DNA from: an uncultured Verrucomicrobiae bacterium
GTDB lineage: Bacteria > Verrucomicrobiota > Verrucomicrobiia > Opitutales > JABDGR01
NCBI GenBank assembly: GCA_963765205.1
Contig: CAVXVB010000009.1
Location: forward strand, 384,001-448,000
DNA: 64,000 nt
Direction: 5' to 3'
Both the position numbers and the translations under genes were made by a program. The notes below the pieces were generated by a model. That model was not told the origin of the DNA. It saw only the letters and a list, made by a program, of their open reading frames with translations, and made no database searches. Of this stretch, positions 25,738-63,114 are shown piece by piece (position 1 is the stretch's first letter; each line of letters starts with the position of its first letter).

Positions 25738-25886
25738 GTTGTGTCCTTCCTAAACTTAGGGTGTCGAAATCAACGTTAGGGGTCAAAAAAAGCGGGATTA
25801 CCCTTCAAACCCCGATTTTGTTCATTTTTTCTTGAACAAACGGGGAACCCATGCCATGTTGAGGGTGTTTTAACCCCCTTTCGCCC

Positions 25887-26471
25887 ATGCGTCTTGCCCT
25901 GTTAGCGGGCCGTCGGAAGGCCCCTGCCGCCAATGGCCGCGTCGCCGCGGGACACCTTCCCGCGCCCAAACCGCCGGAAGGGCCGCTGGTCACCCGGCCG
26001 CTCAACGCCTCCGAGCGCGAGCTGGTGGATTGGTTTGTGGATTTCACGGCGTTGATGAGCCTGCCGGCGTCCGTCGGGGAGATTTACGGGTTGCTCTATT
26101 TGTCGGGCCGGGCGCTGCCGTTTGACAATTTTGTCGAGCGGCTCGGCATCAGCAAAGGCTCCGCGAGCCAGGGCCTCAAATTTTTGCGCGGCCTCGGCGC
26201 GGTGCGCGTCATCGCCGTCGTGGGCGAGCGCCGGGAGTTCTACGAGGCGGAAATCAGCCCGACGCGCCTGGTCGCCGGATTTTTGAAGGAAAAGGTGCAG
26301 CCACGCCTCAAGGAGAACGACGAGCGCCTGGCGCGCCTGAAAAAGGCGCTTCACGAGATGGAAGTGGTAGACCCGCTGCTGGCCGAACGCGTGCATCGCC
26401 TGCACGTGTGGAACCAGCGCGCGCGGCAGTTCCTGCCCGTGGTTTCCGGCCTCATCAAATTCCGCGCATGA
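25887..26471 (+). CDS. GbsR/MarR-family transcriptional regulator
   Basis: SVGEIYGLLY, LGISKGSASQGLKFL, GERREFYEAE; heads the polysaccharide cluster. Confidence 0.85.
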   Translation: MRLALLAGRRKAPAANGRVAAGHLPAPKPPEGPLVTRPLNASERELVDWFVDFTALMSLPASVGEIYGLLYLSGRALPFDNFVERLGISKGSASQGLKFLRGLGAVRVIAVVGERREFYEAEISPTRLVAGFLKEKVQPRLKENDERLARLKKALHEMEVVDPLLAERVHRLHVWNQRARQFLPVVSGLIKFRA

Positions 26472-26506
26472 AATACTTTTTCCCACGCTCTCACTTTTCC
26501 GCGACA

Positions 26507-26648
26507 CCGCCCGACGGCGGCTGAACGGCTTCCCGCGCGCCCATGACGGGCCGCCCCACATCCCGGCTGGCAGTAACGATTGGCTTCCGCGCAGGCGGTG
26601 CGGCCAAGGGCGGCAGCGTGGGCGCCGGTGAACGCCGTTGACGGGTGG
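26507..26648 (+). ncRNA. Putative structured cis-regulatory RNA containing a JUMPstart/ops-like motif
   Basis: Four nested helices found by eye; GCCAAGGGCGGCAGCGTG at 26603-26620. Confidence 0.5.
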
Positions 26649-26683
26649 CGGGCGGACGGATTAACCTCAACTCACCCCTACTT

Positions 26684-27619
<936 letters not shown>

Positions 27620-27680: not shown

Positions 27681-29051
27681 ATGAACATCTGCTGCATTGG
27701 CGCGGGCTACGTCGGCGGGCCGACCATGGCCATGATTGCCCACAAGTGTCCCTTTATCAAAGTCACCGTCGTGGACGTGGACGCGCGCCGCATCGCGGCC
27801 TGGAATCACGGCCCGCTGCCGGTTTTCGAGCCGGGCCTCGACGAGGTCGTGCGGCAGGCGCGCGGGCGCAACCTGTTTTTCTCGACCGAGATTGACGCCG
27901 CCATCCGCGAGGCGCAGATGGTTTTCATCTCCGTCAACACGCCGACGAAGATGTATGGCGTCGGCGCGGGCAAGGCGTCCGACCTGCAATATGTCGAGGC
28001 CTGCGCGCGGCGTATCGCGGCGGTCGCGCGCGACGACAAGATCGTCGTCGAAAAGTCCACGCTCCCCGTGCGCACGGCCGAGAGCGTCCGCGCGATTTTG
28101 GCCGCGCAGCGGGAAGGCCCGCGCTTCCAGGTGCTGTCGAACCCGGAATTTCTCGCCGAGGGCACGGCCGTGCGCGATTTGGAGAAGCCCGACCGCGTGC
28201 TCATCGGCGGCGACCCGTCGGCGGCCGGCCAGGCGGCGGTGCAGGCGCTGGTGGACGTTTACGCGCACTGGGTGCCCCGCGCGAAAATTTTGACCACCAA
28301 CCTTTGGAGTTCGGAATTGTCGAAGCTGACGGCCAACGCCTTCCTCGCGCAGCGCATCAGCAGCATCAATGCGATTTCCGCCCTCTGCGAGGCGACCGGC
28401 GCGGATGTGGACGAGGTCGCGCACGCCATCGGCACGGACTCGCGCATCGGCCCGAAATTTTTGAAGGCCTCGGTCGGCTTCGGCGGCTCGTGTTTCCAGA
28501 AGGACATCTTGAACCTCGTTTACCTCTGCGAGCATTACGGCCTCGATGAGGTGGCCAGCTATTGGGAGCAGGTGGTGAAGATGAACGACCACCAAAAGCG
28601 CCGCTTTACCCGGCGCATCGTGCGCAGCTTATATAATACCGTGGCCAACAAACGCCTCGCGCTGCTCGGGTTTGCGTTCAAAAAGGACACCAACGACACG
28701 CGCGAGTCGCCCGCGATTTACGTCTGCCAGGACCTGCTGGCCGAGCGCGCGAAAGTCGCGATTTACGACCCGCAGGTCACGGCGGAAAAGGTCTCCGCCG
28801 ACCTGGGCCTCAAGGACCTGGCCGCCGCCGGGGTGGAAGTTTGCGCCGACGCCTACGCCGCCGCGACCGGCGCGCACGCCCTCATCATCTGCACGGAATG
28901 GGACGAATTCAAGAACCTCGATTTCAGCCGCATCTACGAAGCGATGCACCGCCCCGCGTTTGTATTTGATGGGCGCAATGTGCTCGATTTGGCGGCGTTG
29001 CGGAAGATTGGCTTTACGGCGAGCGGGATTGGGAAGAGCAATGAGGAGTAA
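27681..29051 (+). CDS. ugd: UDP-glucose 6-dehydrogenase
   Basis: [39 protein letters not shown]. Confidence 0.96.
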
Positions 29052-29063
29052 ATTATTTTTGAC

Positions 29064-29339
29064 ATGAATCAGTTAGCGCCAGAGCCAATTATGCGAGCCG
29101 CATTACGTGTGCTATTTATTGCATCTGTAACAACTCGAAACTGGACATTGAATGACGAGATTAGTCGAAAGCAAATTGATGATCTTTGGGAGGCGATTCA
29201 TGAGATACCTGATTTGCTAAGGCGTTGGAATTCTCCACTAGCGTCTGAAGCAGAGCTTTTGATGTATCTGCGGGAATACGATTCGAAATGGAAAAGCCCA
29301 AACCTTGAAGAAGTTTATAAACAGGCATTGAGTAACTAA
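29064..29339 (+). CDS. Low-GC hypothetical protein (91 aa)
   Basis: ATG ORF occupying the AT-rich patch between ugd and the gmd-like gene. Confidence 0.6.
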   Translation: MNQLAPEPIMRAALRVLFIASVTTRNWTLNDEISRKQIDDLWEAIHEIPDLLRRWNSPLASEAELLMYLREYDSKWKSPNLEEVYKQALSN

Positions 29340-29378
29340 TTCCCAAATTAATATGGGCATCTTGAAATGGATTGTTAT

Positions 29379-29432
29379 GGTAGGGACGGCTCTCCGAGCC
29401 GTCCGTGGACGCCTCGGAGAGGCGTCCTTACC
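29379..29432. repeat. GTAG-type REP doublet
   Basis: GGTAGGGACGGCTCTCCGAGCCGTCC and inverted GGACGCCTCGGAGAGGCGTCCTTACC, 2 nt apart. Confidence 0.75.
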
Positions 29433-29453
29433 TTGCATTCAGAGAGACATTCC

Positions 29454-30446
29454 ATGAACACCGCCTTCATCACCGGCATCACGGGCCAGGACGGCTCTTA
29501 CCTCGCGGAGCTGCTTCTCGAGAAGGGCTACGAGGTGCATGGGTTGGTGCACCGGCCGGAGTCGCTGGCGTCCGGCATTTTGGCCAAGCTCACGCAGGGC
29601 GAGACGGCGGCGGGCGCGCGGTTGCATTTGCACATCGGCTCGTTCGAGGACACGACGCACCTGCGCCGCCTCATCATGCGCGCCAAGCCCACGGAATTCT
29701 ACCACCTCGCCGCGCAGTCCAGCCCGCGCCTGAGCCTCGAACTGCCCGAGACCACGATGGAGAGCGTCGGCATGGCGACCGTGCGCCTGCTCGAAATTTT
29801 GCGCGACCTGGACAACCCGCCCAAGTTCCTCTACGCCTCGTCCTCCGAAATTTTCGGCGAGCCGGAAAAAACGCCGCAGGACGAATCCACGCCGATGCAG
29901 CCCTCGACGCCCTACGGCGTGGCCAAGGCGCTCTCGACCCAGATGGCGAAAATCTACCGCGGGGCCTACGGGCTGAACACTTGCGCGGCCATCCTGTATA
30001 ACCACGAGTCGCCGCGGCGCAGCGGGCAGTTCGTCACCATGAAAGTGGCGCGGGCGGCGGCGCGCATCCGGTTCGGCTGGCAGAAAAAATTGCAGCTCGG
30101 CAACCTCGCCGGCCAGCGCGACTGGGGCTGGGCGCCGGACTACGTGCGCGGGTTCTGGCTGATGCTCCAGCAGCCCAAGGTGGACGACTTTGTGCTCGCC
30201 ACGGGCAAGCTGCACAGCGTCGAGCAGCTCGTTGAGCGCGCGTTCGCGGTCATCGGCCTGAATTGGCGGGATTACGTTGAGCACGACGCCGGGCTGGTCA
30301 CGGCGGTCGAGCCGGCGCGCCTGTGCGGCAATCCGGAGAAGGCCCGGCGCGTGCTCGGCTGGGAAAACACGGTGCCGTTTGACGCCATGGTCGAGCGCCT
30401 GGTGGTTTCCCAACTCGAGGTCGCTAATAGCGGAGGACGGGGCTGA
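29454..30446 (+). CDS. GDP-mannose 4,6-dehydratase-like protein (divergent paralogue)
   Basis: [37 protein letters not shown]. Confidence 0.88.
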   Translation: MNTAFITGITGQDGSYLAELLLEKGYEVHGLVHRPESLASGILAKLTQGETAAGARLHLHIGSFEDTTHLRRLIMRAKPTEFYHLAAQSSPRLSLELPETTMESVGMATVRLLEILRDLDNPPKFLYASSSEIFGEPEKTPQDESTPMQPSTPYGVAKALSTQMAKIYRGAYGLNTCAAILYNHESPRRSGQFVTMKVARAAARIRFGWQKKLQLGNLAGQRDWGWAPDYVRGFWLMLQQPKVDDFVLATGKLHSVEQLVERAFAVIGLNWRDYVEHDAGLVTAVEPARLCGNPEKARRVLGWENTVPFDAMVERLVVSQLEVANSGGRG

Positions 30447-30460
30447 GCGGGGAAAAATGA

Positions 30461-30597
30461 ATGGAAAATGGAAGATGGAAGATAGAAAAATAAAACCCCA
30501 AGACCATCCTGGTTTGTTTTTCCATCTTCTATTTTCCATCTTCCATTCTTAAGTCCCGTGTGACATCTTTTTCCATCTTCCATTTTCCATCTTCCAT
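30461..30597. repeat. Heptamer arrays: (ATGGAAR)4 and two inverted (YTTCCAT)4
   Basis: Arrays at 30461-30488, 30519-30546 and 30570-30597. Confidence 0.8.
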
Positions 30598-30606
30598 TAT
30601 TTACCT

Positions 30607-31614
30607 ATGAAACGCGCTCTTATCACCGGCATCACCGGCCAGGACGGCTCCTACCTCGCCGAACTGCTGCTCGAAAAAGGCTACGAAGTCCACGGCATTG
30701 TGCGCCGTAGCAGCAGCCTCAACCGCGGTCGTATTGACCACCTGCGTCCGTGGGAAACCGGCAAGAAGCAGCGGCTCTTCCTGCACTACGGCGACCTGGC
30801 GGACAGTGTCTCGCTGGTCAAAATGCTTTACGAGCTGAAACCGGACGAGATTTACAACCTCGCGGCGCAAAGCCATGTGCGCGTCAGCTTCGACATTCCC
30901 GAATACACGGCGGACATCACGGGGGTCGGCGCGGCGCGCATCCTCGAAGCCATCCGCGAGAGCGGCCTGGCGAAAAAAGTGCGTTTTTACCAGGCGTCTT
31001 CGTCGGAAATGTTCGGCAAGGTGCAGGAAGTGCCGCAAACGGAACGCACGCCGCTCTACCCGCGCTCACCCTATGCCTGCGCGAAGGTCATGGCGCATTA
31101 CCTGACCATCAATTACCGCGAGTCCTACAAGCTCTTCGCGTGCAGCGGCATCCTCTTCAACCACGAAAGCCCCCGGCGCGGCGAGTCGTTCGTCACCCGC
31201 AAGATCACCCTGGCCGCCGCACGCATCAAGCTCGGCCTCCAGAAAAAACTGGTGCTGGGCAATATTGATTCGAAGCGCGACTGGGGCTACGCGAAGGAAT
31301 ACGTCGAGGGCATGTGGCGGATGCTCCAGCAGGACAAGCCCGACGACTATGTGCTCGCCACCAACGAGACGCACACAGTGAAGGATTTTCTCGCCGCCTC
31401 TTTTGGCGCGCTGGATTTGGACTGGAAAGACCACGTCGAGTTCGACGCCCGCTACCTGCGCCCGGCCGAGGTGGATTTGCTCATCGGCGATTATCACAAG
31501 GCCAAGAAGCACCTCGGCTGGGAGCCGCACACGCGCATGGCCGCTCTCGCCAAATTGATGGTCGAGCACGACTTCACCCTCGCGGAGCGCGAGGCCCGCG
31601 CCGCGCAAGCCTGA
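30607..31614 (+). CDS. gmd: GDP-mannose 4,6-dehydratase
   Basis: [42 protein letters not shown]. Confidence 0.96.
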
Positions 31615-31622
31615 TATTGTCC

Positions 31623-32372
31623 ATGAACGTTTCGGTTGTCATTCCCGCGCGGCTGGCCTCGACGCGCCTGCCGCGCAAAGTCCTTGCCGATTTGGGCGGC
31701 AAGCCCGTGCTGCAACACGTCTGGGAACGCGTCGCACGGATGCGCCGCGCCACGGAAATCCTGGTGGCGACGGATAGCGAGGAAGTCGCCGCCGCGGTGA
31801 CGGGGTGGGGTGGGCAGTTTGTGCTGACCTCGCCGGAGTGCCGCAGCGGCACCGAACGCATCGCCTCGATCCTCGATGGGCTGAAGGGCCAGTTCATTTT
31901 GAATGTGCAGGGCGACGAACCGTTTATTGACCCGGAATTGCTGGACTCAATGGCCGAGTCTTTTGCCGCCCACGGCGGCGATGTCGTGACGCCCGTCTAT
32001 CCCCTCCGCAACTACGGGGCGCTGACGAACCCGGCGGTGGTCAAGGTGGTGCGCGGGGCGGACGGGCGCGCGTGGTATTTTTCGCGCTCGCCGATTCCGC
32101 ACCTGCGCGGCGTGCCGATGGAGCAATGGCCCGCGCGCGGCCTGCATTGGGGTCACCTCGGCGTTTACGGTTACGCGCGCGCGAAGCTCGCCGCTTACTC
32201 CTCTTTGCCCGAAAGCCCGCTCGAAGCCGTCGAGGCGCTCGAGCAACTCCGCTTCCTTGAAGCCGGCTGGCGCATCCAGACGGTGGAAACGCAATACCAC
32301 GTCGTCGCCATTGACACCCCCGAGGATTTGGCGCGCGCACGCGCATTACTCGCCCCCTCCACGGTGGCCTGA
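31623..32372 (+). CDS. kdsB: 3-deoxy-manno-octulosonate cytidylyltransferase
   Basis: IPARLASTRLP.K, SGTER, NVQGDEP, YFSRSPIP, LEQLR, IDTPEDL. Confidence 0.94.
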   Translation: MNVSVVIPARLASTRLPRKVLADLGGKPVLQHVWERVARMRRATEILVATDSEEVAAAVTGWGGQFVLTSPECRSGTERIASILDGLKGQFILNVQGDEPFIDPELLDSMAESFAAHGGDVVTPVYPLRNYGALTNPAVVKVVRGADGRAWYFSRSPIPHLRGVPMEQWPARGLHWGHLGVYGYARAKLAAYSSLPESPLEAVEALEQLRFLEAGWRIQTVETQYHVVAIDTPEDLARARALLAPSTVA

Positions 32373-32374
32373 TT

Positions 32375-33364
32375 ATGAAGAAAACAACCAAAACATTCTC
32401 CAAATCCAAGACACTGGCATGCGGGCGCGCTGTCTTGTCCGCCGAAACCCAGGCGTTGCAGGCCGCCACCACGCGCCTCGACGACCAATTCTCGCGCGTG
32501 GTTGAGATGATTTATCATGCGCCGGGCCGGGTGGTTGTCGTCGGCCTGGGCAAATCCGGGTTGGTGGCGCACGCCATCGCGGCCACGCTGTGCAGCCTCG
32601 GCACCGCCGCAGTGTATTTGCACGCGGGCGAGGCCGCACACGGCGACATCGGCGTGGTCGGCCGCGGCGATGTGGTGATTTTGGTTTCGAAAAGCGGCGC
32701 CACCCCGGAATTGGTCCGTCTGGCGCCCGTGTTGCGCGCGCTCGGCGCGAAGCTGGTTGCGCTCACCGGCCATTTGCAATCGCCGTTGGCGCGGGAGGCC
32801 GATGCCATTCTGGACGCCTTTGTCGAGCGCGAGGCCGACCCCTTGGGCCTCGCGCCCACGAGCAGCGCCCTCGTCGCGCTTGCCCTCGGCCATGCGCTGG
32901 CGGCGGCCCTCGCGCAGGTCCGCGGATTTTCCGCGGAGGATTTCGCGCGTACGCACCCGTCGGGCCAGTTGGGCCGCAATCTTTTGCTGCGCGTGGCCGA
33001 CGTGATGCACGGCCTCGACGAAATCGCCGTCACCGCGACCGGAGACAAAATGCGCGACGCGGTGGTTGCGATGACACACCGGCCGCACGGCGCCGCCTGC
33101 GTGGTCGGCCCGCGCCAAAAACTGTTGGGGTTGGTGACGGACGGCGACGTGCGCCGCGCCCTGCAAAAGCATGAGGACATCCGTCCGCTGACAGTCGCGG
33201 ACGTGATGACGGCCCATCCAATCAGCATCATGCCCGAGACGCTGTTGGGTGACGCCCTGCGCTTGATGGAAGACCGCCCTTCGCAAATTTCCGTTTTGCC
33301 GGTGGTGGACGCAAAGGGCCGCTGCCTCGGTCTGCTGCGTTTGCATGACATCTACCAACATTAG
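32375..33364 (+). CDS. kdsD: Arabinose-5-phosphate isomerase (KpsF/GutQ family; SIS plus CBS domains)
   Basis: GLGKSG, EAAHGD, SKSG, APTSS, HPSGQLG, CBS pair. Confidence 0.92.
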   Translation: MKKTTKTFSKSKTLACGRAVLSAETQALQAATTRLDDQFSRVVEMIYHAPGRVVVVGLGKSGLVAHAIAATLCSLGTAAVYLHAGEAAHGDIGVVGRGDVVILVSKSGATPELVRLAPVLRALGAKLVALTGHLQSPLAREADAILDAFVEREADPLGLAPTSSALVALALGHALAAALAQVRGFSAEDFARTHPSGQLGRNLLLRVADVMHGLDEIAVTATGDKMRDAVVAMTHRPHGAACVVGPRQKLLGLVTDGDVRRALQKHEDIRPLTVADVMTAHPISIMPETLLGDALRLMEDRPSQISVLPVVDAKGRCLGLLRLHDIYQH

Positions 33365-34935
33365 TGGACATGACTGCGGCGCATGACACGGCGGTGACGC
33401 CCACCTTGCGGGGCCAGTTCCCCACGCGGCCGGCGGCAGTCACGCCCCCGAGCCGCCGTGAATCCGCGGTGTTTGTTTTGGCGGGTACGGCCCTCGTTTT
33501 GCCGCCCTGGCTGGTCGGCGCGTGGGACAACTGGGCGCAATGGGCGACGCTCGCACTGGCGGCGCTCGCTTTCGCGGCGCTCTTTGCACCGATGTTCGAT
33601 TACCGCGCGTGGCCGCCTTCGCCTGCTGCGCGCGCGACGTGGGCACGCCTGGCGAAGTTTCCGATTTTTTGGATCGGACTGGCGATTCTGGTTTACGGCG
33701 CGCTCGCGGCGATCAACCCTTCGCGGAGACTGGTCGTGGCGGAAGACCAGCAGTGGCTGGAGGATCTGCCGCATGTCCCGTGGCTGCCGCATAGCATTGC
33801 CGCGCCATTTTGGCCGATGAACGCCTGGCGCGCGTTGATGATTTTCGCACCCGCCTGGCTGGCCACCTGTGCGGTTTGGGCTGGTCTCGAAACGGAGCAG
33901 GCTTGGCGGCGCTTGCTTGGCGCGGTAGCGGTAAATGGCACCTTGCTGGCCTTGCTCGGCATGGCCCAGCGATTGAGCGGCACACGTTATATGTTCTGGA
34001 TGTTTGACCCACTGCCCAACAGCCTTACGCCAGATTTTTTTGGCAGCTTTATCTACGCCGGGCATGCGGCTGCTTGGATGGCGCTGGCCTTCGGCGCGGC
34101 CGCAGCCATGATGGACCACCGCCTGCGCCGGCGCGATCCGCACAGGCCGCCGCGCGCTTGGGGCTGGCCCTCGCTAACGGCGTGGGTTTGGCTCGAAGCG
34201 CTCGTGGTCATCCTCGTGGCGCTGAGTTTGTTTGTGAAACCGGACTTTTGGGCGCTCGCGCCGGGCGGCGTGCTGGTGGTGTGCGCCTTTCTCTGGTTGG
34301 CCCGTTGGTGGCGCGCGGGTCAAAAACGGCGCGCGGCGCTCTATGCGCTGCCCACATTATTTTTCATGGCGCTCCTGTTGTTGGCCACCAGCACCGCGCT
34401 CCTGTTGTGGCGTCAAGGCGGCGGGGGCGAGACGCTGGAAGTCAACCCGCTTGATCCGGCCCTGCCCGTGCGCTACGCGATCGCGCGGACCACGGCGGGC
34501 ATGATCCGGCAAGAGCCGGTGTTCGGGTGGGGGCCCGGCGGTTTCCGCTATGTTTCGCCGTATTATTTAATCAGCAATCCGGATTTTTCCGACCCGCGGC
34601 ATATCGGGGAATTGCGCTACAACTCCCACTACGCGGAGAGTGACTGGGTGCAAATTCCCGCCGAATGGGGCATGTTGGGCGCGGGCTTGTTTGCCGCGGC
34701 GCTGGCGTGGTGGACGTGGCAAGCCTGGACGCTGCGCCGCCTGCTACCTGGTGAATCATGGATTATTTTGGGCGCAGTCGCGCTAATATTCGCCGGGGCG
34801 TGGGCCGACTGCCCCTTGTATAATCCCGCGGTCTTGATTGCCGTGGGTGTGTTGCTGGCCACGGCCGTGAAGCTTGGCGAAATGGCCGGGCGCCCACGCC
34901 CTACATTGAGTCATGTGATTGTCGCCTGCCCATGA
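33364..34935 (+). CDS. O-antigen ligase (Wzy_C)-family membrane protein
   Basis: Multi-TM; FFGSFIY, PVFGWGPGGF, YAESDWVQIPAEWG. Confidence 0.8.
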   Translation: MDMTAAHDTAVTPTLRGQFPTRPAAVTPPSRRESAVFVLAGTALVLPPWLVGAWDNWAQWATLALAALAFAALFAPMFDYRAWPPSPAARATWARLAKFPIFWIGLAILVYGALAAINPSRRLVVAEDQQWLEDLPHVPWLPHSIAAPFWPMNAWRALMIFAPAWLATCAVWAGLETEQAWRRLLGAVAVNGTLLALLGMAQRLSGTRYMFWMFDPLPNSLTPDFFGSFIYAGHAAAWMALAFGAAAAMMDHRLRRRDPHRPPRAWGWPSLTAWVWLEALVVILVALSLFVKPDFWALAPGGVLVVCAFLWLARWWRAGQKRRAALYALPTLFFMALLLLATSTALLLWRQGGGGETLEVNPLDPALPVRYAIARTTAGMIRQEPVFGWGPGGFRYVSPYYLISNPDFSDPRHIGELRYNSHYAESDWVQIPAEWGMLGAGLFAAALAWWTWQAWTLRRLLPGESWIILGAVALIFAGAWADCPLYNPAVLIAVGVLLATAVKLGEMAGRPRPTLSHVIVACP

Positions 34936-34996
34936 AATTTTCCGTTCGAAAAGCCCGCCCCGGTGTGGACGACGCCCCGGCATTTTCATATCCAGC

Positions 34997-36535
34997 GTGA
35001 ACCGCGCGACATTCCAAACCGCAGTGGCTTCCCCCTCTGCTGCGATTCCGCCCGAAAAAACGGCCGTCAGCAGCGTGGAGCGTGCCGTGACGGGCTTGGT
35101 TTGCTCCTGGGTCGTCATTGTGCCGTGGCTGCTGGGAGGCTGGTTATGGTGGGTCCAGGTGCTCAGCGCAGTGGTCGCTGCGGTTGCGTTCGGATTGGCG
35201 GTGCGTCCCTCGGATAACCGGCGCACTCTGTGGCGGTTCCCGGTTTTCTGGCTCGGACTGCTGTTTTTGGGCTACATCCTTTGCCAGGCGCTAAATCCCT
35301 GGGGCGGGGCCGTGCAGAGGATTTCGCCGAAAGTGGGTCCGGTCAATGTGTGGGATGTCACGACACAGCCGCATTTGGCTTGGCTGCCGGCGGGGCTTGA
35401 CGCGAATTACACCCAAATGAGCACTTGGCGAATGCTGGTGTATTGGACTAGCCCATGGCTGCTGGTTTGTGCGTGGTGGGCCGCCGTGCGGCGACGGCGC
35501 AGCGGTCGCCGCCTGGCGTTATGGGTTTTTCTTAATGGCATCGCGACGGCGCTCGTTGTCCTGATGCAGCATGTGCATCCGCCCGCCAAGGTTTTGGGCC
35601 TCTATTGGAACCCTGCGTGGGATCCGACCGCGATGGTCCAACTGACGACCTCGGCGGCCTTTGTGAACCATGACGCGGCAGCAGCGTTCTTGTATCTCTC
35701 GCTAGGCGCGGGGCTGGCGGTAGCGTGCCGACTCCAGACGCGTGCGAGCGACGAGACCCGCGACTCCGGCCTGGCCTGGATCGCTGTGCTTGGGTGTCTG
35801 GTTATACTCGCCAGTTTTTTCGCACTGGGAAGCCGGGCTGGGCTGGTCATTGCGGGGGTGTTGTTTGGGCTGGGATTGGGTGTGATGCTGGCGGCGGCGC
35901 TGGCCCGCGGCGGGCGTTCGCCGGGCGTCTGGCTCGGTGGCGCGGTGCTGGTATTGGCCTTAATTGGTTTGATTAGCTATGAATTGCACGGAGAAAATTC
36001 GGCCACGTTGGCCCGCGAGCAATACCTGCATGACCACCCGGAGGAGGACGTGCGCGCGGTCCTGCGCTTCGAATCGGAGCGGATGCTCCAACCGCATTTT
36101 TGGCTCGGTTGGGGTGCGGGCACCTACCGGTATGTCATTCCGCCTTATTTTTACGCCGACAACGAATTTCAAAGCTCCACCACCTATGGCGGATCCACGG
36201 TCTGGACGGACTACGCGCATTGCGATTGGCTGCAACTGCCGGTGGAATACGGCGTGCTTGGCGCCGGTCTTGCCCTTGCGATGCTGTTCTATTGGTATGG
36301 CCATGCATTATGGCTGGCGCGCACGCTCGGGGCGGCGGGCGTCGTCACGCTCTTGGCGACCACCGGCTTGCTCGCGCACTCGCTGGTGGATTTCCCTCTT
36401 TTTAACTCGGCGGTGCTCCTCTTGTTTTCCCTGCTGCTGGCCTCGACCGTCAAGACCGCGGCGCTCAGTTCGCATCGCCGGGTGCGCCAGGCTTTTCCCG
36501 CTGCGGACTCCGGGCCAGGTCGTGGCAGGAATTAA
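34997..36535 (+). CDS. O-antigen ligase (Wzy_C)-family membrane protein
   Basis: Multi-TM; GSRAG, WLGWGAGTY, YAHCDWLQLPVEYG, HSLVDFP; start position uncertain. Confidence 0.82.
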   Translation: MNRATFQTAVASPSAAIPPEKTAVSSVERAVTGLVCSWVVIVPWLLGGWLWWVQVLSAVVAAVAFGLAVRPSDNRRTLWRFPVFWLGLLFLGYILCQALNPWGGAVQRISPKVGPVNVWDVTTQPHLAWLPAGLDANYTQMSTWRMLVYWTSPWLLVCAWWAAVRRRRSGRRLALWVFLNGIATALVVLMQHVHPPAKVLGLYWNPAWDPTAMVQLTTSAAFVNHDAAAAFLYLSLGAGLAVACRLQTRASDETRDSGLAWIAVLGCLVILASFFALGSRAGLVIAGVLFGLGLGVMLAAALARGGRSPGVWLGGAVLVLALIGLISYELHGENSATLAREQYLHDHPEEDVRAVLRFESERMLQPHFWLGWGAGTYRYVIPPYFYADNEFQSSTTYGGSTVWTDYAHCDWLQLPVEYGVLGAGLALAMLFYWYGHALWLARTLGAAGVVTLLATTGLLAHSLVDFPLFNSAVLLLFSLLLASTVKTAALSSHRRVRQAFPAADSGPGRGRN

Positions 36536-36537
36536 TT

Positions 36538-37629
36538 ATGTCAAATTATTACACGGTAATCATGGCGGGAGGCCGGGGCGAGCGTTTCTGGCCCGAAAGC
36601 CTTAAGGCTCGGCCCAAGCACCTCCTGGCGATCGTGGGTGATAAGCCCATGCTTGCTCAAACGGTGGAGCGTTTGAGCGGCTTGGTGCCGACCGAGCGGG
36701 TGTTCGTTTTGACGAATGCGGAGCATGTCGCGGCGGTGCGCGCCGTTTGCCCGGAAATTCCCGCTGAACAAATTATTGGCGAGCCAGTGGGCCGCGACAC
36801 CGCGCCCGCCGCCGCTTTGGCGGCACTGCTGGTGCGGCGTCGCGACCCGGACGGCGTGATGGCGCTGCTGGCGGCCGACGCGGCGATTCACGATGCCGCG
36901 GGTTTTCGCTCGACCATGGAGGCGGCTTTTTCGGCCGCGGCCACGCAGGACTACATTTTCACCGTCGGCGTGCCACCAGCTTTTCCAGCGACGGCTTACG
37001 GCTATTTGCGCTTGGGTCCGAAAGTCGGCGAAAGCATGGGACACTCATGGTTCCATGTGGATAAGTTTGTTGAAAAGCCCGACCGCCCGACTGCCGAACG
37101 TTACCTCAAGGAAGGAACTTATCTTTGGAATGCGGGCATATTCGTCGTGCGCGCCAAGGTGCTTGAAGCCGCTTTGGTCAAGTATGCAACGGTCATCGCC
37201 GACGGGATGAAGGCGGTGGACGCCCTGCTCGACCAAGGGGCTTCCCTCCCCGCCGCGCTGGCGGCGGTCTATCCCGGATTGACGAAGATTTCCGTGGATT
37301 TCGCCGTCATGGAAAAGGCCGCCAATGTCGCGGTTTTCAAAGCGACATTTGATTGGGACGACGTGGGTGAGTGGCCGGCAATTTTCCGCCATGCAGTGAA
37401 AGATCCCGAGGGCAATGTAATTGGGCGGTCTGAGGCTATATTTCATGAGGCCAAAGGAAATATCGTGCGCAGCACCCCCGATCACTTGGTTGCTTTGTTG
37501 GGGGTGAATGATTTGGTCGTGGTGCATACGGACAAGGTCACCCTGGTCTGTCCTCGGGATCGCGCTCAAGAATTAAAGCAATTGCTCCAGAAGCTCGGAG
37601 CAAAACCCGATGGCGCGCAATGGTTATAG
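36538..37629 (+). CDS. manC: Mannose-1-phosphate guanylyltransferase
   Basis: IMAGGRGERFWP, EPVGRDTAPA, FVEKP, WNAG, ISVDFAVMEK, WDDVG. Confidence 0.94.
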   Translation: MSNYYTVIMAGGRGERFWPESLKARPKHLLAIVGDKPMLAQTVERLSGLVPTERVFVLTNAEHVAAVRAVCPEIPAEQIIGEPVGRDTAPAAALAALLVRRRDPDGVMALLAADAAIHDAAGFRSTMEAAFSAAATQDYIFTVGVPPAFPATAYGYLRLGPKVGESMGHSWFHVDKFVEKPDRPTAERYLKEGTYLWNAGIFVVRAKVLEAALVKYATVIADGMKAVDALLDQGASLPAALAAVYPGLTKISVDFAVMEKAANVAVFKATFDWDDVGEWPAIFRHAVKDPEGNVIGRSEAIFHEAKGNIVRSTPDHLVALLGVNDLVVVHTDKVTLVCPRDRAQELKQLLQKLGAKPDGAQWL

Positions 37630-37648
37630 CCATATTTAATCTTCCCTC

Positions 37649-38689
37649 ATGGCGCTTTATTTAATCACCGGAGCGGCGGGCTTTATTGCCTCACGCGTGG
37701 CGGAATTGCTCCTCGCCCAGGGCCATGCCGTGGTCGGAGTGGACAACCTGAACGATTACTACGACGTGCGCCTGAAGGACTACCGCTTGGCGCGCCTAAT
37801 GGGCGATACAACCTGGCAACCCGGCGCGGACGCGCGGCGCTCCCAGTTCGGCGGGCGCGGGCGGCGCACCGCGGGCGGCGGGCGGTTTGTGTTTGAGGCG
37901 GTGGACATTGAGGACCGCGCCGGGTTGGAACAACTTTTCCGCGAATTTCGTTTTGACGCTGTTTTCAACCTCGCGGCGCGGGCTGGCGTGGCCTACAGCG
38001 TCGTTAATCCGCACGTTTACCTCACGACCAACACGCATGGCACACTAAACCTGCTCGAATGCCAGCGCCAGTTTGGCGTAAAGAAAATGGTGCTCGCCTC
38101 GACTTCGTCGCTTTATGCGGGCAGCCCGCTCCCCTTCACCGAGGAGCAACCCGTGAACGCACCGCTCTCGCCGTATGCGGCCTCGAAGAAAGCCGCGGAA
38201 CTTTTTGCCCATAGCTATTCTAAGCTGCACGGCCTCGACATCACCGTCGTGCGCTACTTCACCGTCTTCGGCCCCGCCGGCCGCCCGGACATGAGCATTT
38301 TCCGTTTCATCGAAGCGATTGAGCAGGGCCGGGCGCTCCCGCTGTATGGCGATGGCACCCAGTCGCGTGATTTTACGTTTGTGGACGACATTGCGCGCGG
38401 CACCATCCTTGCCACCCGGCTGCTGGGCTATGAAATCATCAACCTGGGCGGCGGCCGCTCGCCGACGACGCTTGCCGACGTGATCGCCCGTATCGAAAAC
38501 GCGCTGGGCCGGAAGGCAATTATCGCCGGCCATCCGCCCATCGCCGCCGACCTCAAAGCCACGCGCGCCGACATTGCCAAGGCCGCAAACCTCCTGGGTT
38601 GGCAGCCGAAAATCGCCTTTGACGAAGGGCTGGCTGCGACCATCGCCTGGCACCGTGAAAACCGCGGGTGGCTGAAATCCGTATCCTAG
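37649..38689 (+). CDS. NAD-dependent epimerase (UDP-glucuronate 4-epimerase-like)
   Basis: TGAAGFI, DNLNDYYD, LAARAGV, SPYAASKK, FGPAGRPDM. Confidence 0.88.
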   Translation: MALYLITGAAGFIASRVAELLLAQGHAVVGVDNLNDYYDVRLKDYRLARLMGDTTWQPGADARRSQFGGRGRRTAGGGRFVFEAVDIEDRAGLEQLFREFRFDAVFNLAARAGVAYSVVNPHVYLTTNTHGTLNLLECQRQFGVKKMVLASTSSLYAGSPLPFTEEQPVNAPLSPYAASKKAAELFAHSYSKLHGLDITVVRYFTVFGPAGRPDMSIFRFIEAIEQGRALPLYGDGTQSRDFTFVDDIARGTILATRLLGYEIINLGGGRSPTTLADVIARIENALGRKAIIAGHPPIAADLKATRADIAKAANLLGWQPKIAFDEGLAATIAWHRENRGWLKSVS

Positions 38690-38690
38690 G

Positions 38691-39503
38691 GTGAAAAATT
38701 CCATCGGCATCATGCAAGGCCGGCTTTCCGCATCGTCGCCCGCGGGTCCGCAAGTGTTTCCCGCGGCCACCTGGCGCAGTGAATTTGCCGTGGCTCGTGA
38801 ATTGGACTTCGACACGATTGAATGGCTGGTCGAGGCGGGAAGTTTGGCCGTCAATCCCTTGCTTTCCCCTGCGGGCCGCGCGGAAATTAAGAAAACGGGG
38901 CAAGCCTCCGGGATTCGCATCGCCTCCGCCTGCGCGCATTGTGTTTTGCAATGGCAGCCATTTGCTCCGGATGGCGCCAAGCGCCTGGAGGATTTTTCCA
39001 CCCTGCTCAATGCGGCCGGTGCGGCCGGCCTGGAACGAGTCATCGTGCCCATTCTCGAAGCGGCCACCATTGCCAAGGCAGCGTCGCGGGCCCATGCCGC
39101 CGAAATTTTCCGGCCCGCGGCGCGCGCCGCGGAGCAGGCGAAGGTGGACTTGGCCTTTGAAATGGATCGGCCTGCCGGGGAGTGCCGCGAATTTATTGCC
39201 TGGCTTGACTCGCCCCGCGCGCGCTTGTGCTACGACACCGGCAATGCCACCGCGCTCGGCTATGACATTGTTGAGGAAATCAATCTGTTGCTGCCCTTGG
39301 TCGCGGAAATTCATCTTAAGGATCGGCGCGTGGGTGGCGCGAGCCAGCCGCTGGGTTACGGCGACACGCGCTTCGCGGAGTTTTTCCAGATCATTGCGGA
39401 GCGCGCCTGGGCCGGCCCCTTCGTGCTGGAAACGCCGACCCTGGGCGATCCGCGCGGTCAAGCCCGGCAAAATTTGGCGCGGGTGAAAAAATTCCTGTCA
39501 TGA
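38691..39503 (+). CDS. Sugar-phosphate isomerase/epimerase (xylose-isomerase-like TIM barrel)
   Basis: IGIMQGRLS, YDTGN, IHLKD, LET metal-ligand motifs. Confidence 0.85.
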   Translation: MKNSIGIMQGRLSASSPAGPQVFPAATWRSEFAVARELDFDTIEWLVEAGSLAVNPLLSPAGRAEIKKTGQASGIRIASACAHCVLQWQPFAPDGAKRLEDFSTLLNAAGAAGLERVIVPILEAATIAKAASRAHAAEIFRPAARAAEQAKVDLAFEMDRPAGECREFIAWLDSPRARLCYDTGNATALGYDIVEEINLLLPLVAEIHLKDRRVGGASQPLGYGDTRFAEFFQIIAERAWAGPFVLETPTLGDPRGQARQNLARVKKFLS

Positions 39504-40546
39504 AACGGTTCACCGTGTTATTCGCAGGCTTGGGCAGCATTGGCCAGCGACACCTTCGCAACCTCATGGCGTTGCTACCCGAACCGCCGCGCGTGCTCGC
39601 CTACCGCACCACCCGGGGCGATCGGATATTGACCGATGATTTGCGCGTTGAAGCCGACACGGGTTTGGCCAAGAAATTTGGCCTCGAAACGTTTTCCGAT
39701 CTCGACGCGGCCCTCGGGCAGCACCCGGATCTCACTTTCGTGACCAATCCAACCAGCCGGCACCTGGCGGTGGCGCTGGCGGCGGCGCGCGCGGGCAGCC
39801 ATTTATTTGTGGAAAAGCCACTCAGCCACGACTGGGCAGGAGTGGAGGATTTGCTGGCCCTCATGGAACGCCCGGGCCGCGTCGGCTGCGTCGGGTATCA
39901 ATTCCGTTTTCATCCAGCGTTTGAGAAAATTGCGCTTTGGGTGCAAGAAGGCCGTTTGGGCAATGTCGCGGCGGTGCGCGCGGAAGTCGGGGAATATATG
40001 CCGGGTTTTCATTCCTACGAGGATTACCGCGGCACTTATCCCGCGCGGGCGGAGTTGGGCGGCGGCGTCGTGCTGTGCCAGATTCACGAATTCGATTTGC
40101 TCTATGCATTGTTCGGCGTACCGGACGAAGTTTTTGCCGTCGGTGGCAAAAACAGCCGGCTCGCCCTCGATGTCGAGGACACAGCGGCGGCGCTATTCCG
40201 CTATCGCCGCGCGGGCTGCGCCGACTTGTCCGCGCAAGTCCACCAGGATTTTCTACAGCGTCCACCTCGCCGAAATTTCCAAATTATCGGCGACGAAGGC
40301 GCGATCTATTGGGATTATCCGGGCAAAACACTGCAATTATTTGGCCCGGAAGGGACGGCGGTTGAATCGCAAAATTTTGCCGATTTGCGGCGCAACCATT
40401 TGTTCATTTCCGAGCTGCAGCACTTTCTTGCCTGCGTGGCCGGGCGCGAGCAGCCGCGCGTCAGTTTGCGTGACGGCGCCCAGAGCCTGCGCCTGGCCTT
40501 GGCAGTGAAACAATCCCTCGCCACGGGCAAGGTCGTTCAACTATGA
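39500..40546 (+). CDS. Gfo/Idh/MocA oxidoreductase
   Basis: GLGSIGQRH, FVEKP, GGGV, HEFD, DVED. Confidence 0.9.
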   Translation: MKRFTVLFAGLGSIGQRHLRNLMALLPEPPRVLAYRTTRGDRILTDDLRVEADTGLAKKFGLETFSDLDAALGQHPDLTFVTNPTSRHLAVALAAARAGSHLFVEKPLSHDWAGVEDLLALMERPGRVGCVGYQFRFHPAFEKIALWVQEGRLGNVAAVRAEVGEYMPGFHSYEDYRGTYPARAELGGGVVLCQIHEFDLLYALFGVPDEVFAVGGKNSRLALDVEDTAAALFRYRRAGCADLSAQVHQDFLQRPPRRNFQIIGDEGAIYWDYPGKTLQLFGPEGTAVESQNFADLRRNHLFISELQHFLACVAGREQPRVSLRDGAQSLRLALAVKQSLATGKVVQL

Positions 40547-41304
40547 GCGACAAAAACAGCAACATCCTCGCGCTCATTCCCGCGCGCGGCGGCTCTAAAG
40601 GCATTCCGCGCAAAAACGTGCGCGTGCTGGCTGGGAAACCGCTCATCGCCTATTCGATCGAGCATGCTTTGCGGTCGCGGCGCATCGGGCGCGTCCTCGT
40701 CTCGACCGACGATGAGGAAATCGCCGCCGCCGCGCGCGCCGCCGGCGCCGAGGTGCCTTTTATGCGCCCGGCGGAGTTTGCGCAGGATTTGTCGCCCGAC
40801 CTTGATGTTTTCCGCCATGCTTTGCGCTGGCTGCTTGAGCATGAGAATTACCGGCCCGAATTGGTGGTCCATTTGCGGCCGACCGGCCCGGTGCGCCGGG
40901 TGGAACTTATTGACGAGGCCATCGCCCGGATGCTCGCGACCCCAACGGCGAATGCGCTACGCTCAGTCAGCGTGCCGGCGCTGACGCCCTACAAGATGTG
41001 GCGCATGGAAAACGGCTTCTTGAAGCCGCTTCTGACCGTGCCCGGGGTCAAAGAACCCCACTCCATGCCACGTCAGATGTTGCCGGAAGTTTATTGGCAA
41101 AACGGCTACGTGGACATCGTGCGTGCGCGCACCATCCTCGACCAGAACAGCATGACTGGCGACTTGGTCTTGCCGTTCATTGTGACCGACCGAATTTTTG
41201 AGCTGGACTACGAGGACTCGATCCCCGAGGTCGAGCGCGTGCTCCAGGCGCTGGCGCGCGGCGAGCACGTCTCCTTCGCGCAGGAAAACCGGCCCGCCGT
41301 CTAA
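40543..41304 (+). CDS. neuA: Acylneuraminate (nonulosonate) cytidylyltransferase
   Basis: IPARGGSKGIPRKN, STDDEEI, FMRPAEFA, LRPT, QNG. Confidence 0.92.
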   Translation: MSDKNSNILALIPARGGSKGIPRKNVRVLAGKPLIAYSIEHALRSRRIGRVLVSTDDEEIAAAARAAGAEVPFMRPAEFAQDLSPDLDVFRHALRWLLEHENYRPELVVHLRPTGPVRRVELIDEAIARMLATPTANALRSVSVPALTPYKMWRMENGFLKPLLTVPGVKEPHSMPRQMLPEVYWQNGYVDIVRARTILDQNSMTGDLVLPFIVTDRIFELDYEDSIPEVERVLQALARGEHVSFAQENRPAV

Positions 41305-41321
41305 AGCGGGCCGGGGAAAAC

Positions 41322-41350
41322 TTGACGCTGCCGGCCAGCGCGGATATTTT
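41322..41350 (+). promoter_or_regulatory. Possible internal sigma70 promoter upstream of neuB
   Basis: TTGACG-17 bp-TATTTT in the 107-bp neuA-neuB gap. Confidence 0.4.
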
Positions 41351-41411
41351 CCCAATCGGCTCCCTGCGCGACAGCCCACATTTTTTTCACCACCCAACTA
41401 GGATTTTCCCC

Positions 41412-42282
41412 ATGCCCAAAGCCATCACCCTCGGAGACCGCCAGGTCGGCGGCCAGCACGCCTGTTTCATCGTCGCGGAGATTGGCATCAACCACAATGG
41501 CGACCTCGCCCTCGCCAAAAAGCTCATTGATGCCGCGCTGGATGCCGGTTGTGACGCCGTTAAATTCCAGAAGCGCACGGTGGACGTGGTCTACACCAAG
41601 GAGGAACTGGCCAAGCCGCGCGAGAACCCCTTCGGCCCCACGAATGGCGACCTCAAACGCGGCCTCGAATTCGGCAAGACGCAGTTTCAGGAAATTGACC
41701 AGCATTGCCGGGAAAAGGGCATCCTCTGGTTTGCCTCCTGCTGGGACGAGGCCTCCGTGGACTTCATCGAAAAATTCAACCCGCCCTGTTACAAAATTGC
41801 CTCGGCCAGCCTGACGGACGACGAACTGCTGCGCCACCACCGCCGGACCGGCCGGCCCCTCATCCTCTCCACCGGCATGAGCACGCTGGCGCAAGTCGAC
41901 CACGCCCTCGAAGTCCTGGGCAAAAATGATTTAATTCTGTTGCACACCAACAGCACCTACCCCTCGAAGCTCGAGGAATTGAACATTCGCACCCTGCTAA
42001 CGCTCGCGGAACGCTACGGCGTGCCCACTGGTTATTCGGGCCACGAAGTCGGTCTAGCGCCGTCGGTGGGTGCGGACCGCCATCGGTGCGTGCCTGCTCG
42101 AACGGCACATCACCCTCGACCGGGCGATGTGGGGCAGCGACCAGGCGGCCTCCGTCGAGCCGCAAGGTTTTGCGCGCCTCGTGCGTGATGTGCGCGCCAT
42201 CGAAATGAGCTTTGGGGATGGAGTGAAGCGCGTTTATGACAGCGAAGTGCCGATCATGAAAAAGCTGCGCCGCAAAGGTTGA
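41412..42282 (+). pseudogene. neuB: NeuB-family nonulosonate synthase without SAF domain; frameshift near 42075 (probably a sequence error)
   Basis: AEIGINHNG, VKFQKR, KIASA, STGM, SGHE; ERHITLDRAMWGSDQ continues in the next frame. Confidence 0.9.
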
Positions 42283-42304
42283 ATCCGACGAATTTAATTT
42301 CCCC

Positions 42305-43132
42305 GTGAACGTCAAGGATCAGTTTGATCTCGCGGGCCGCGTGGCGGTCATCACCGGCGGCGCAGGACTGCTCGGCGTGCAGCACGCCGAAGCCATCGCC
42401 GAAATGGGCGGCATTCCCATCCTGGTCGATGTGGACGCCCGGCGCGCCGTCGCCGTTGCGAAACAAATCGCCCTGCGTTTCAGCGTGCCGGCCGCGGCGC
42501 ACGGGGTGGACATCACCCGGCCCGCGTCTGTCAAAAAACTGCGCGACATTTTGCTGCGCAAGCAGGGCCGCGTGGACATTTTGATCAACAACGCCGCGCG
42601 CAATCCCAAAGTTGAGGGCGCGGGCAAACTGGTTTGGTCGCGCCTGGAAAATTATCCGCTGCCCCAATGGGAGCAGGATTTGGCGGTGGGTCTGACCGGG
42701 GCGCTGATCTGCTCGCAAATCTTTGGCGCGGAAATGGCGCGCGCGGGCCGCGGTGTCATCCTCAACGTCGCCAGCGACCTTGGCGTCATCGCGCCCGACC
42801 AGCGCATTTACCGCCGGCCCGGCGTGCCGGCGGATCGGCAAATGGTCAAGCCCGTCAGTTATTCCGTCGTCAAGCACGGCCTGATCGGCCTGACGAAATA
42901 CCTCGCGACCTACTGGGCCGAACAAGGCGTGCGCGCCAATGCGATTTCGCCCGGCGGCGTCTTTAATGAACAGGACCAGGATTTCGTGCGCCGGCTGACC
43001 GCGCTGATCCCCCTCGGGCGCATGGCACGCCTCGGTGAATACAAAGCGGCGGTGGTGTTTCTGGTATCTGACGCTTCGCAATATATGAATGGCGCCAACC
43101 TTGTAATGGACGGCGGCCGCAGCACCTGGTGA
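42305..43132 (+). CDS. SDR oxidoreductase (PtmA-like)
   Basis: TGGAGLLG, INNA, YSVVK, SPGG, MDGG. Confidence 0.9.
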   Translation: MNVKDQFDLAGRVAVITGGAGLLGVQHAEAIAEMGGIPILVDVDARRAVAVAKQIALRFSVPAAAHGVDITRPASVKKLRDILLRKQGRVDILINNAARNPKVEGAGKLVWSRLENYPLPQWEQDLAVGLTGALICSQIFGAEMARAGRGVILNVASDLGVIAPDQRIYRRPGVPADRQMVKPVSYSVVKHGLIGLTKYLATYWAEQGVRANAISPGGVFNEQDQDFVRRLTALIPLGRMARLGEYKAAVVFLVSDASQYMNGANLVMDGGRSTW

Positions 43133-44034
43133 AAACAATCAAGCTGCTCGCGTTGGACATTGACGGCGTGCTCACCGACGGCCGCACCACGCTCGGCGCG
43201 CGCTCGCCGGAGAAAAAACGCCTGGCCTTCCAGGACTTGGACGCCATCGGCACGGCCCGGCGCGCGGGTCTGCGCCTTGCCCTGATCACGGGTGAGAGTG
43301 ACGGCTCGGTGGATTTGGTGGCGACGCGAACCGGCGTCCCGGTGGTGCGCCGGGACGCGAAAGACAAATTGGCCGCCCTGCAATCAGTGGCGAAAGATGC
43401 ACGGGTTTCACTCGCAGAAATTTGCTACGTCGGCGATGGTGACCGCGATGCGCCGGCGCTGGCCCAAGCCGGCTTCGCGCTGGCGCCCGCCAATGCCACT
43501 TTCGCCGCCCGGGGTGCGGCCCACCGGGTTTTGAAAAAATCCGGCGGCCACGGCGCAGTCAGCGAAGCGGTGCGGCTGCTCTTGAACCGGTTGGCAGATG
43601 GACGAAACGAAAAAATCATCCGACGGGATTTGCGCGGGTATTTCCAGAAGCATAAAATTCCCCTTCGTCATTTGCCCGCGGTGGCCAAGTTGGCGCACGA
43701 GTTGGCGCGGGCGTTCCAAGCGGGGCGGAAAATCCTTCTCTGTGGAGAGGGCGCTGAGTCCGCGCTGCAAGCTTTGTCCTCGAGCCAGTGGGCCTGGCCC
43801 ATACTCGAACTTTCCCGCGACCCCGCCCTGCGCGCGAAACAGATCCTCGCGGTGGCGCGGCCCGGTGACCTGGTTGTTGAGGTGGGCGGGGCGGAGACTG
43901 ATTCCGCGCATCACGCGATACCGTCAAATATGCCAGACGTGCTTGAGTTGGCGCTGCACGGCCGCCGGGCCGGCGTGGGTTGGCGTGCGGCGGTGGAGGC
44001 CGCGGAAGCAATTCTTGCCCATGGCCCGGCGTAG
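43129..44034 (+). CDS. KdsC-like HAD phosphatase fused to a degenerate GmhA/SIS domain
   Basis: LDIDGVLTD, ITG, DK, YVGD, GGHGAV; C-terminal GRKILLCG ... ARPGD. Confidence 0.8.
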   Translation: MKTIKLLALDIDGVLTDGRTTLGARSPEKKRLAFQDLDAIGTARRAGLRLALITGESDGSVDLVATRTGVPVVRRDAKDKLAALQSVAKDARVSLAEICYVGDGDRDAPALAQAGFALAPANATFAARGAAHRVLKKSGGHGAVSEAVRLLLNRLADGRNEKIIRRDLRGYFQKHKIPLRHLPAVAKLAHELARAFQAGRKILLCGEGAESALQALSSSQWAWPILELSRDPALRAKQILAVARPGDLVVEVGGAETDSAHHAIPSNMPDVLELALHGRRAGVGWRAAVEAAEAILAHGPA

Positions 44035-44063
44035 GCCGTAGCTTCTACCCGGTGTTATTTTTT

Positions 44064-47655: not shown

Positions 47656-47659
47656 CGCC

Positions 47660-48809: not shown

Positions 48810-48872
48810 ACCCGCAGGATTGAAAAACCTTCTGGCCGAACTGCCCCGGCCCTCCATCCCTTTACCCCAGCC

Positions 48873-49716: not shown

Positions 49717-49729
49717 GAGGCCACCCCGC

Positions 49730-50980: not shown

Positions 50981-51061
50981 GGGATCAGTAGCACATAATT
51001 TAATTAACTGTAGCGGATTCAAAGCTTGATCTCGCACGGAACCAAAAGTGCTTTGTTACCC

Positions 51062-52305: not shown

Positions 52306-52400
52306 TACCCGCTTGTAATCCCTCATACGATGGGTATTGTTATTTCCCACCTATTGAGGGTGCGCGCTAGGTCTCTTTTTCGAAGATTTACCAATGCCCC

Positions 52401-53393: not shown

Positions 53394-53491
53394 TTGCAGC
53401 TTTTTTGATTAGCCAGCCATGCCTGGCCAATCGCGGTGGTTGATGTCTCCGGGCTACACTCGCCAATAGTATATCCACAAGATTGCCATTC

Positions 53492-54643: not shown

Positions 54644-54661
54644 CCGCCTGGCCGGTATCCC

Positions 54662-55750: not shown

Positions 55751-55768
55751 CTTGCGAAGGCACTCTTT

Positions 55769-57208: not shown

Positions 57209-57269
57209 GGTTGTCTTTGGCCTCCATTCTTGAATAATTGGCCCTTTACCCCAGCACGGCTCCACTCTC

Positions 57270-58598: not shown

Positions 58599-58665
58599 TT
58601 CGATCCCGTTGGTTTCGCGTGCGTTGGAGCCGGCCCCTGCGGCCCGGCTTCCTTTACCAAGTTTA

Positions 58666-63105: not shown

Positions 63106-63114
63106 CAATTTAAT

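Follow-up and report, generated by a model that had tools for sequence, protein, structure and literature searches.

The window, the whole 64,000-nt stretch of DNA that was analyzed, carries a gene for a GbsR/MJ223-type winged-helix regulator of 194 aa (25887..26471, + strand), then a gap, and then a gene for a uxs-type NAD-dependent sugar epimerase/decarboxylase (26684..27619, +; Pfam PF01370/PF16363), referred to here as uxs, the name that the original prediction gave it. Downstream follows a run of glycan genes recognized from Pfam matches and ORFs (27681..64000, +), namely ugd, gmd, kdsB/kdsD-like, Wzy_C, NeuB, glycosyltransferase, wzm/wzt, and other genes. The run keeps the same strand throughout and extends past the window to ~C9:461,870, ~51 kb from uxs. 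We infer that it is a single transcript; a crude terminator scan of the operon returned three weak candidates. RNA run X1 was uninformative, with a share of 0.06, mostly from short contigs <90% alike on coding parts. At 58609-63824 of the window, a 1110-aa ORF fuses glycosyltransferase-like, Zn-dehydrogenase, and GFO domains, and a UDP-GlcNAc 2-epimerase match in that stretch spans no more than 226 of 347 profile positions, so that additional frameshifts or indels of the assembly may be present.

The MJ223-like winged-helix sequence of the regulator (PDB 1KU9, E 2e-13) places it among GbsR-type proteins, while its score against NCBIfam CudC is 37 bits, far under the cut-off of 218. Upstream of its gene lies a palindromic box, TTGTTCA-N8-TGAACAA (25818..25839), which overlaps the -35 hexamer of a predicted sigma-70-type promoter, TTGAAC-17-CATGTT (25832..25860, +), and is likely a GbsR-type operator. 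The box is invariant in all nine orthologs. The promoter, which a consensus promoter scan missed, is predicted from conservation only, with its -35 invariant and its -10 similar in the orthologs, and the operator role is likewise a prediction from conservation. Moreover, the box precedes 50 of 71 de-duplicated close gbsR-like genes versus 1 of 11 distant ones and is absent from control stretches inside genes (0/82). In this genome, a looser form, TTCA-(A/T-rich 8)-TGAA, has five copies, three of them at gbsR-ops loci; a fourth, distant gbsR paralog (C9:374,538) has neither the element described below nor the box. The simplest reading of this arrangement would be autoregulation of the GbsR-type gene through the palindromic box. 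Another copy of the box (C9:768,390) occupies an AT-rich gap within the glycan operon downstream of the RfaH-like gene of this genome, and the fifth (C9:1,399,373) sits between a divergent ORF and what is presumably a murJ-like gene, where it may extend the regulon to cell-wall export.

The gap between gbsR and uxs contains (i) a JUMPstart-type hairpin (26580..26607, +) with a 3-nt bulge in its 3' arm and (ii) an ops-like 12-mer, GGCGGCAGCGTG (26609..26620, +), a predicted pause and paralog-loading site. The hairpin, a predicted pause hairpin, ends 13 nt before ops U11, in the same register relative to ops as the hairpin of the E. coli rfb leader, and is a stem-loop directly 5' of ops, as in JUMPstart (RF01707). 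The 12-mer has the C3:G8 pair, G4, G5, A7, and the GG...TG pause flanks of ops; the canonical sequence, GGCGGTAGnnTG, has T at position 6, where the locus has C. The sequences that the original prediction had picked out in the gap were all found in place, with the 12-mer ending 63 nt before the uxs ATG, and no Shine-Dalgarno-like purine run is visible before that start.

In nine orthologous gbsR-uxs gaps, the hairpin is invariant and 100% paired. Among 61 verrucomicrobial copies, hand-picked and aligned with MAFFT, pairing in the bulged hairpin amounts to 83.4% and two-sided changes number 94, both values lying above those of all 500 shuffles; the significance of this covariation is overstated because the structure was drawn from the same 61 related sequences. 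A collection scan for the core found at least 120 loci, of which 44, among the matches listed, have verrucomicrobial titles, the assignment being made by reading record titles. A CC paired upstream occurs in 41 of these 44 versus 31 of 76 other loci, among the matches listed and under the same pattern bias. Records titled 'Opitutales bacterium' have the gbsR-element-uxs order found here, with a near-identical hairpin. The hairpin-plus-ops core is real and far beyond chance. The 12-mer alone is no evidence, since a loose pattern of it has ~80 matches in this genome. An exact-pattern search of 201 genomes of the phylum gave 49 matches in 34 genomes, compared with ~19 for a reversed control; among 20 of these matches that were inspected, all 11 from genomes without a detected paralog lay inside long open frames, which is a weak test in GC-rich DNA. 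A canonical GGCGGTAGCGTG at 35716-35727 lies inside a Wzy_C gene, is not accompanied by the conserved hairpin, and scores 10 bits with a model built from the 61 copies (model R1); it was treated as a chance match.

The original prediction had wrapped this core in a large nested-stem RNA. Its four helices can form, at least in the ensemble for 26495-26655, where the mean pair probability is 0.99 for both P2 and P3 and 0.81 for the inner hairpin, with 0.45 for the outer and 0.15 for the inner part of P1. The folding energy at 75% GC does not go beyond chance (z -1.45, equaled or bettered by 18 of 200 shuffles; in a second test, z -1.34 and 48 of 500), and neither the region nor any single hairpin reached z -2 in these tests. 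Nor is the nested fold conserved: in the nine orthologous gaps, 76.3% of its cells are paired, a value matched by 129 of 500 shuffles. By helix, pairing in these orthologs is 52-70% for P1, 79% for P2, and 90.5% for P3. P1 and the outer P2 were both rejected as conserved structure, and P2 decays outside the genus.

These results weigh directly on the proposal that the whole 142-nt nested RNA is an autonomous processive antiterminator acting in the manner of the Bacillus EAR element. In this genome, P2 and P3 would indeed be stable once the RNA is complete, but a fold that is neither conserved nor energetically beyond shuffles is a poor candidate for such a role. The sequence shared across the phylum amounts to only ~40 nt, which track a protein. 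A search of Rfam found no match at gathering score in the window, and relaxing the limit to E 10 for 26300-26800 brought none either. We therefore consider RNA-only action extremely improbable.

Local hairpins describe the upstream part of the gap better than the nested fold does. Local hairpin H0 (26499..26528, +), from the RNAalifold consensus, replaces the 5' arm of P1; it has two-sided changes in five pairs, and 89-93% of its cells are paired in the nine orthologs. Local hairpin H1 (26535..26554, +) is 90.5% paired, with one-sided changes only. Taken together, these two and the JUMPstart-type hairpin have 94.4% of their cells paired in the nine orthologs, a value that none of 500 shuffles reached, in a test that favors H0 because H0 was taken from the consensus of the same alignment. 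Ahead of H0, directly after the gbsR stop, lies a pyrimidine-rich, G-poor tract (26472..26498, +), and similar T/C-rich tracts occur in the orthologs; the tract may serve for loading Rho over a short stretch, an effect that the paralog would counter.

Downstream of ops, a predicted internal promoter, TTGACG-18-TAACCT (26638..26667, +), overlaps the 3' arm of P1. TTGACG-N16-18-TA is present in all nine orthologs and stays beside the uxs start in those with ~85-100 nt inserted after ops; CGTTGACG-N16-18-TA occurs 14 times in this genome. Because this signal is kept in nine of nine orthologs and is tied to the uxs start rather than to ops, a promoter -35 explains the P1 3' arm better than an RNA stem does. 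A conserved promoter-like signal here, together with conserved hairpins that follow the stop codon behind a pyrimidine tract, is also what would be expected if the stems were an attenuator that halts transcription after gbsR, leaving uxs to be expressed mainly from the internal promoter. A terminator scan of the gbsR-uxs gap, however, found none, and no U-run follows any of the hairpins. Attenuation would moreover leave the invariant ops core and its link to the paralog unexplained, and we regard it as very unlikely.

P3, unlike P1, was not rejected and is possible. Its 5' arm, GCCGCCC (26550..26556, +), is the 3' arm of H1 and could alternatively pair with ops. An additional layer can be imagined, compatible with the explanation that we prefer, in which H1 opens when ops emerges from the polymerase and GCCGCCC zips onto GGGCGGC (P3 and part of P2), lengthening the pause hairpin into an escape duplex that drives the loaded complex from the pause. 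P3 stacks directly on the hairpin and spans -12 to -6, was chosen by RNAalifold, and keeps the 90.5% pairing given above, the tolerated changes being C-to-T wobbles; furthermore, escape duplexes at -11 to -9 have been shown for Bacteroides opsA/B (PMC11685472). The changes in P3 are all one-sided in the nine orthologs, since the fixed ops sequence leaves no room for two-sided ones. On the other hand, the duplex energy beats shuffles (p < 0.05) in none of the nine orthologs and in none of 18 other copies of the family or order and, among the matches listed, in 5 of 40 verrucomicrobial scan copies and 2 of 76 controls. With the hairpin enforced, P3-register pairing appears in the best fold of only ~5 of the nine orthologs; moreover, arm and hairpin lie 23 nt apart, and H1 already constrains the arm. 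Such a switch is doubtful, and anti-ops pairing as a phylum-wide feature was rejected, its duplex not being beyond shuffles.

The core 20-mer (26601-20) has three sites at ≤2 mismatches in the 4.02-Mb genome, each directly downstream of one of three close gbsR paralogs and all upstream of glycan or ABC-export genes. The second site lies behind the only NusG paralog detected in the genome and before a wzm-type gene, while the third precedes ABC2/ABC genes and has TTGGC/GCCAA replaced by TTGCC/GGCAA; the first and third sites are far from the paralog gene. This NusG paralog, the search for which had been part of the original prediction, is RfaH-like: RfaH (TIGR01955) scores best of six NusG-type NCBIfam models, at 84.5 bits, under the curated cut-off of 144.5 bits, and its best PDB match is E. 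coli RfaH. Compared with relatives, the RfaH-like gene (minus strand) is shifted in frame by one base at a run of C close to its 3' end (C9 ~773,750). Its tail is thereby longer and different and extends across the ops element; the frameshift may be an assembly error.

To follow the paralog across the phylum, a profile of 17 paralogs was run against the 201 genomes. It split them cleanly, with 47 genomes having a match at E ≤ 3e-39 and the remaining matches, at 1e-15 to 4e-21, falling in the range of the housekeeping NusG of this genome. Behind 48 paralog genes picked by protein profile alone, in a window of -50..+200 nt of the stop, the motif was found 15 times, compared with 0/48 and 0/48 in two control windows; 33 of the 48 have no motif directly behind them, and a gbsR-like gene is also present at 14 of the 15 motif-bearing loci. 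When loci were selected by the GbsR protein, the motif lay within 1.1 kb in 27 of 39 (E < 1e-15) and in 1 of 10 distant ones. The order is reversed in some lineages, where the gbsR-like gene comes after the element.

Model R1 matched 29 of the 47 paralog-bearing genomes versus 2 of 65 paralog-less ones at E ≤ 1e-3, a threshold set after the scores were known, the 65 having been taken from 154 genomes without a detected paralog and the two genome sets having been scored with 121 and 88 candidates each. At ≥28 bits, the counts are 21 and 0, and after removal of 13 genomes that feed or duplicate the seed, 16 of 34 paralog-bearing genomes are matched. Eighteen of the 47 have no match at E ≤ 1e-3, and at E ≤ 0.05 the difference narrows to 36/47 versus 34/65. 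These co-occurrence counts are not independent, because the genomes are related. The genes that come first after strong R1 matches are for the most part epimerase, gmd, glmS-like, wzz, GT4-family, and ABC exporter genes, some others being unassigned; certain genomes have a PD-(D/E)XK-family or 23S-IVP four-helix-bundle gene in this place instead of one for a glycan enzyme. Judged by genome content, element and paralog occur together across the phylum, which sustains the original proposal that a JUMPstart/ops-type element goes with a NusG paralog specific to the lineage.

Conservation of the 12-mer itself was read from the 15 protein-selected copies. Positions 2-5 and 7-9 are invariant, so that C3, G4, G5, A7, and G8 are all kept, and the GG...TG pause signature had been correctly recognized, with T11 in 13 and G12 in 11 of the 15. 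The claim that T6 has become C was right for the locus but does not generalize: position 6 is C in 12, T in 2, and G in 1 of these copies, and C in 19, T in 8, A in 2, and G in 1 of the best 30 model loci. In one genome (G108), a single detected paralog accompanies sites of the two kinds, C6 and T6, that do not lie in long open frames. By this comparison, position 6 is relaxed rather than fixed to a new code. In E. coli, ops bases 3-8 matter for RfaH recruitment and not for pausing, T6 inserts into a pocket of H20, R23, Q24, and R73, and the C3:G8 pair is architectural (PMC5995543). Few of the E. coli ops-contact residues are kept among the 48 paralogs (K10 in 12, H20 in 5, R23 in 12, Q24 in 3, and R73 in 5), and of K10, H20, R23, and R73, the paralog of this genome retains R73 only. 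An AlphaFold2 model of this paralog (64 sequences; query cut before the frameshift) has a NusG-type N-domain with pLDDT mostly 80-97 and a mixed C-domain in which a helix at 152-164 has pLDDT 50-69, a low-confidence picture that speaks neither for nor against a fold-switching, autoinhibiting C-terminal domain as in RfaH. Replacement of the contact residues fits a rebuilt pocket, base read-out by the paralog being putative only.

The loss of most residues that read G5 and T6 in RfaH, the variable position 6, and ops flanks that match the consensus pause could also mean that the element is a hairpin-stabilized pause only, with the NusG paralog loading at any nearby paused polymerase without reading the ops loop. 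Yet C3, G4, G5, A7, and G8, which pausing in E. coli can dispense with (PMC5995543), do not vary in the 15 copies, and of the three sites found here only the second is near the paralog gene. Loading by pausing alone is accordingly unlikely.

We consider it probable that the hairpin and the ops-like 12-mer pause RNA polymerase and load the RfaH-like paralog, which would then carry transcription through the ~51-kb glycan run. This proposal builds on what the sequence comparisons show, namely the element with its covarying hairpin, the presence of three copies behind GbsR-type genes in this genome, and co-occurrence with the paralog. Transcription would start at the box-overlapped promoter, whereby the GbsR-type protein would gate both its own transcript and the operon, and the RNA past gbsR would fold as H0, H1, and the JUMPstart-type hairpin. 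The latter, ending 13 nt before U11, would stabilize a pause at 26619 in the way of the Bacteroides opsX hairpins. The paralog, which would act in trans because it is encoded ~363 kb away, would then read the non-template ops loop (C3:G8 pair, G4, G5, and A7) by means of a pocket for which T6 is no longer required. The loaded polymerase would resist Rho-type polarity and may aid ribosome loading at the SD-poor uxs start, and the second promoter just past ops could give unprotected, proximal expression of nucleotide-sugar genes. A fuller scheme can be offered only tentatively: a two-tier control of verrucomicrobial surface glycans in which a promoter-gating, ligand-sensing GbsR-type repressor is combined with a hairpin-stabilized ops pause and a single RfaH-like factor that has a rebuilt, T6-indifferent pocket and acts in trans at several operons, with an H1-to-escape-duplex switch in this family and a second promoter past ops that yields short unprotected transcripts of the nucleotide-sugar genes.

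A full-text search covering few subscription journals found no publication joining RfaH, ops, and Verrucomicrobia and none on Verrucomicrobia with antitermination, polysaccharide, and NusG; Opitut- with RfaH returned nothing besides one nuclease review. RfaH has been counted in 23 phyla and is described as mostly confined to Proteobacteria, detailed knowledge of recruitment being credited to E. coli RfaH alone (PMC7593976); the data set of that study may include verrucomicrobial RfaH homologs. To this the locus adds a relaxed position 6 with replaced contact residues, a GbsR box, a promoter past ops, and the rejection of a large fold. An ops core in a distant phylum supplies natural variants for the read-out of non-template DNA by NusG paralogs and bears on the origin of the ops signal, ancient or transferred. 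Since E. coli ops is described as having no pause hairpin (PMC11685472) and the covarying hairpin here lies at pause-hairpin distance, the role of the JUMPstart stem becomes directly testable. Finally, the palindromic box and the element together predict a glycan regulon for many uncultured Verrucomicrobia.

Compared with known systems, the element is by its sequence a variant of JUMPstart/ops-RfaH that falls outside RF01707, canonical ops, and the RfaH equivalog. It resembles that system (i) in a hairpin that ends 13 nt before U11 and is followed by GGCGG-AG-TG, (ii) in a first glycan gene within ~100 nt (63 nt here; in the two E. coli leaders compared, rfb and waaQ, the distances to the following ATG are 46 and 83 nt), and (iii) in a NusG paralog closest to RfaH and long glycan operons. 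It differs in a position 6 that is variable and mostly C, in mostly replaced ops-contact residues, and in its setting, with a GbsR-type gene and its palindromic box on the upstream side and a second promoter-like signal on the other. The hairpin is bulged and, as the original prediction had it, larger than that of known JUMPstart elements, whereas the outer nested stems added there are not conserved; similarly, the 5' CAGT is present here but recurs at that column in only two of nine orthologs. The RF01707 model, recorded in PMC2864571 for gamma-Proteobacteria only, gave no match at the site at E up to 10, and none of five genomes exceeded its gathering score of 35 bits.

The Bacillus EAR element (epsC motif, RF01735), which has a link to antitermination, is likewise found near the beginning of a polysaccharide operon (PMC2864571), whereas the element here has no RF01735 match and no conserved large fold and tracks a NusG paralog. 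The regulator matches the GbsR family of MarR-type repressors in its likeness to MJ223 and in the palindrome over its predicted promoter (PMC6207618; PDB 1KU9); unlike the members described, it is associated with glycan operons and ops, and the terms Verrucomicrob- and polysaccharide are absent from the main text of PMC6207618. The Bacteroides opsX-UpxY system shares capsule-type leaders that combine a pause site, a hairpin, and a NusG paralog, and its hairpins end at -9 to -16, some extending into an escape duplex (PMC11685472); the hairpin end at -13 falls inside that range. There, each operon has its own UpxY and a UpxZ inhibitor, and the sites diverge (PMC11685472), whereas here a single paralog accompanies three near-identical sites, which resemble E. 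coli ops.
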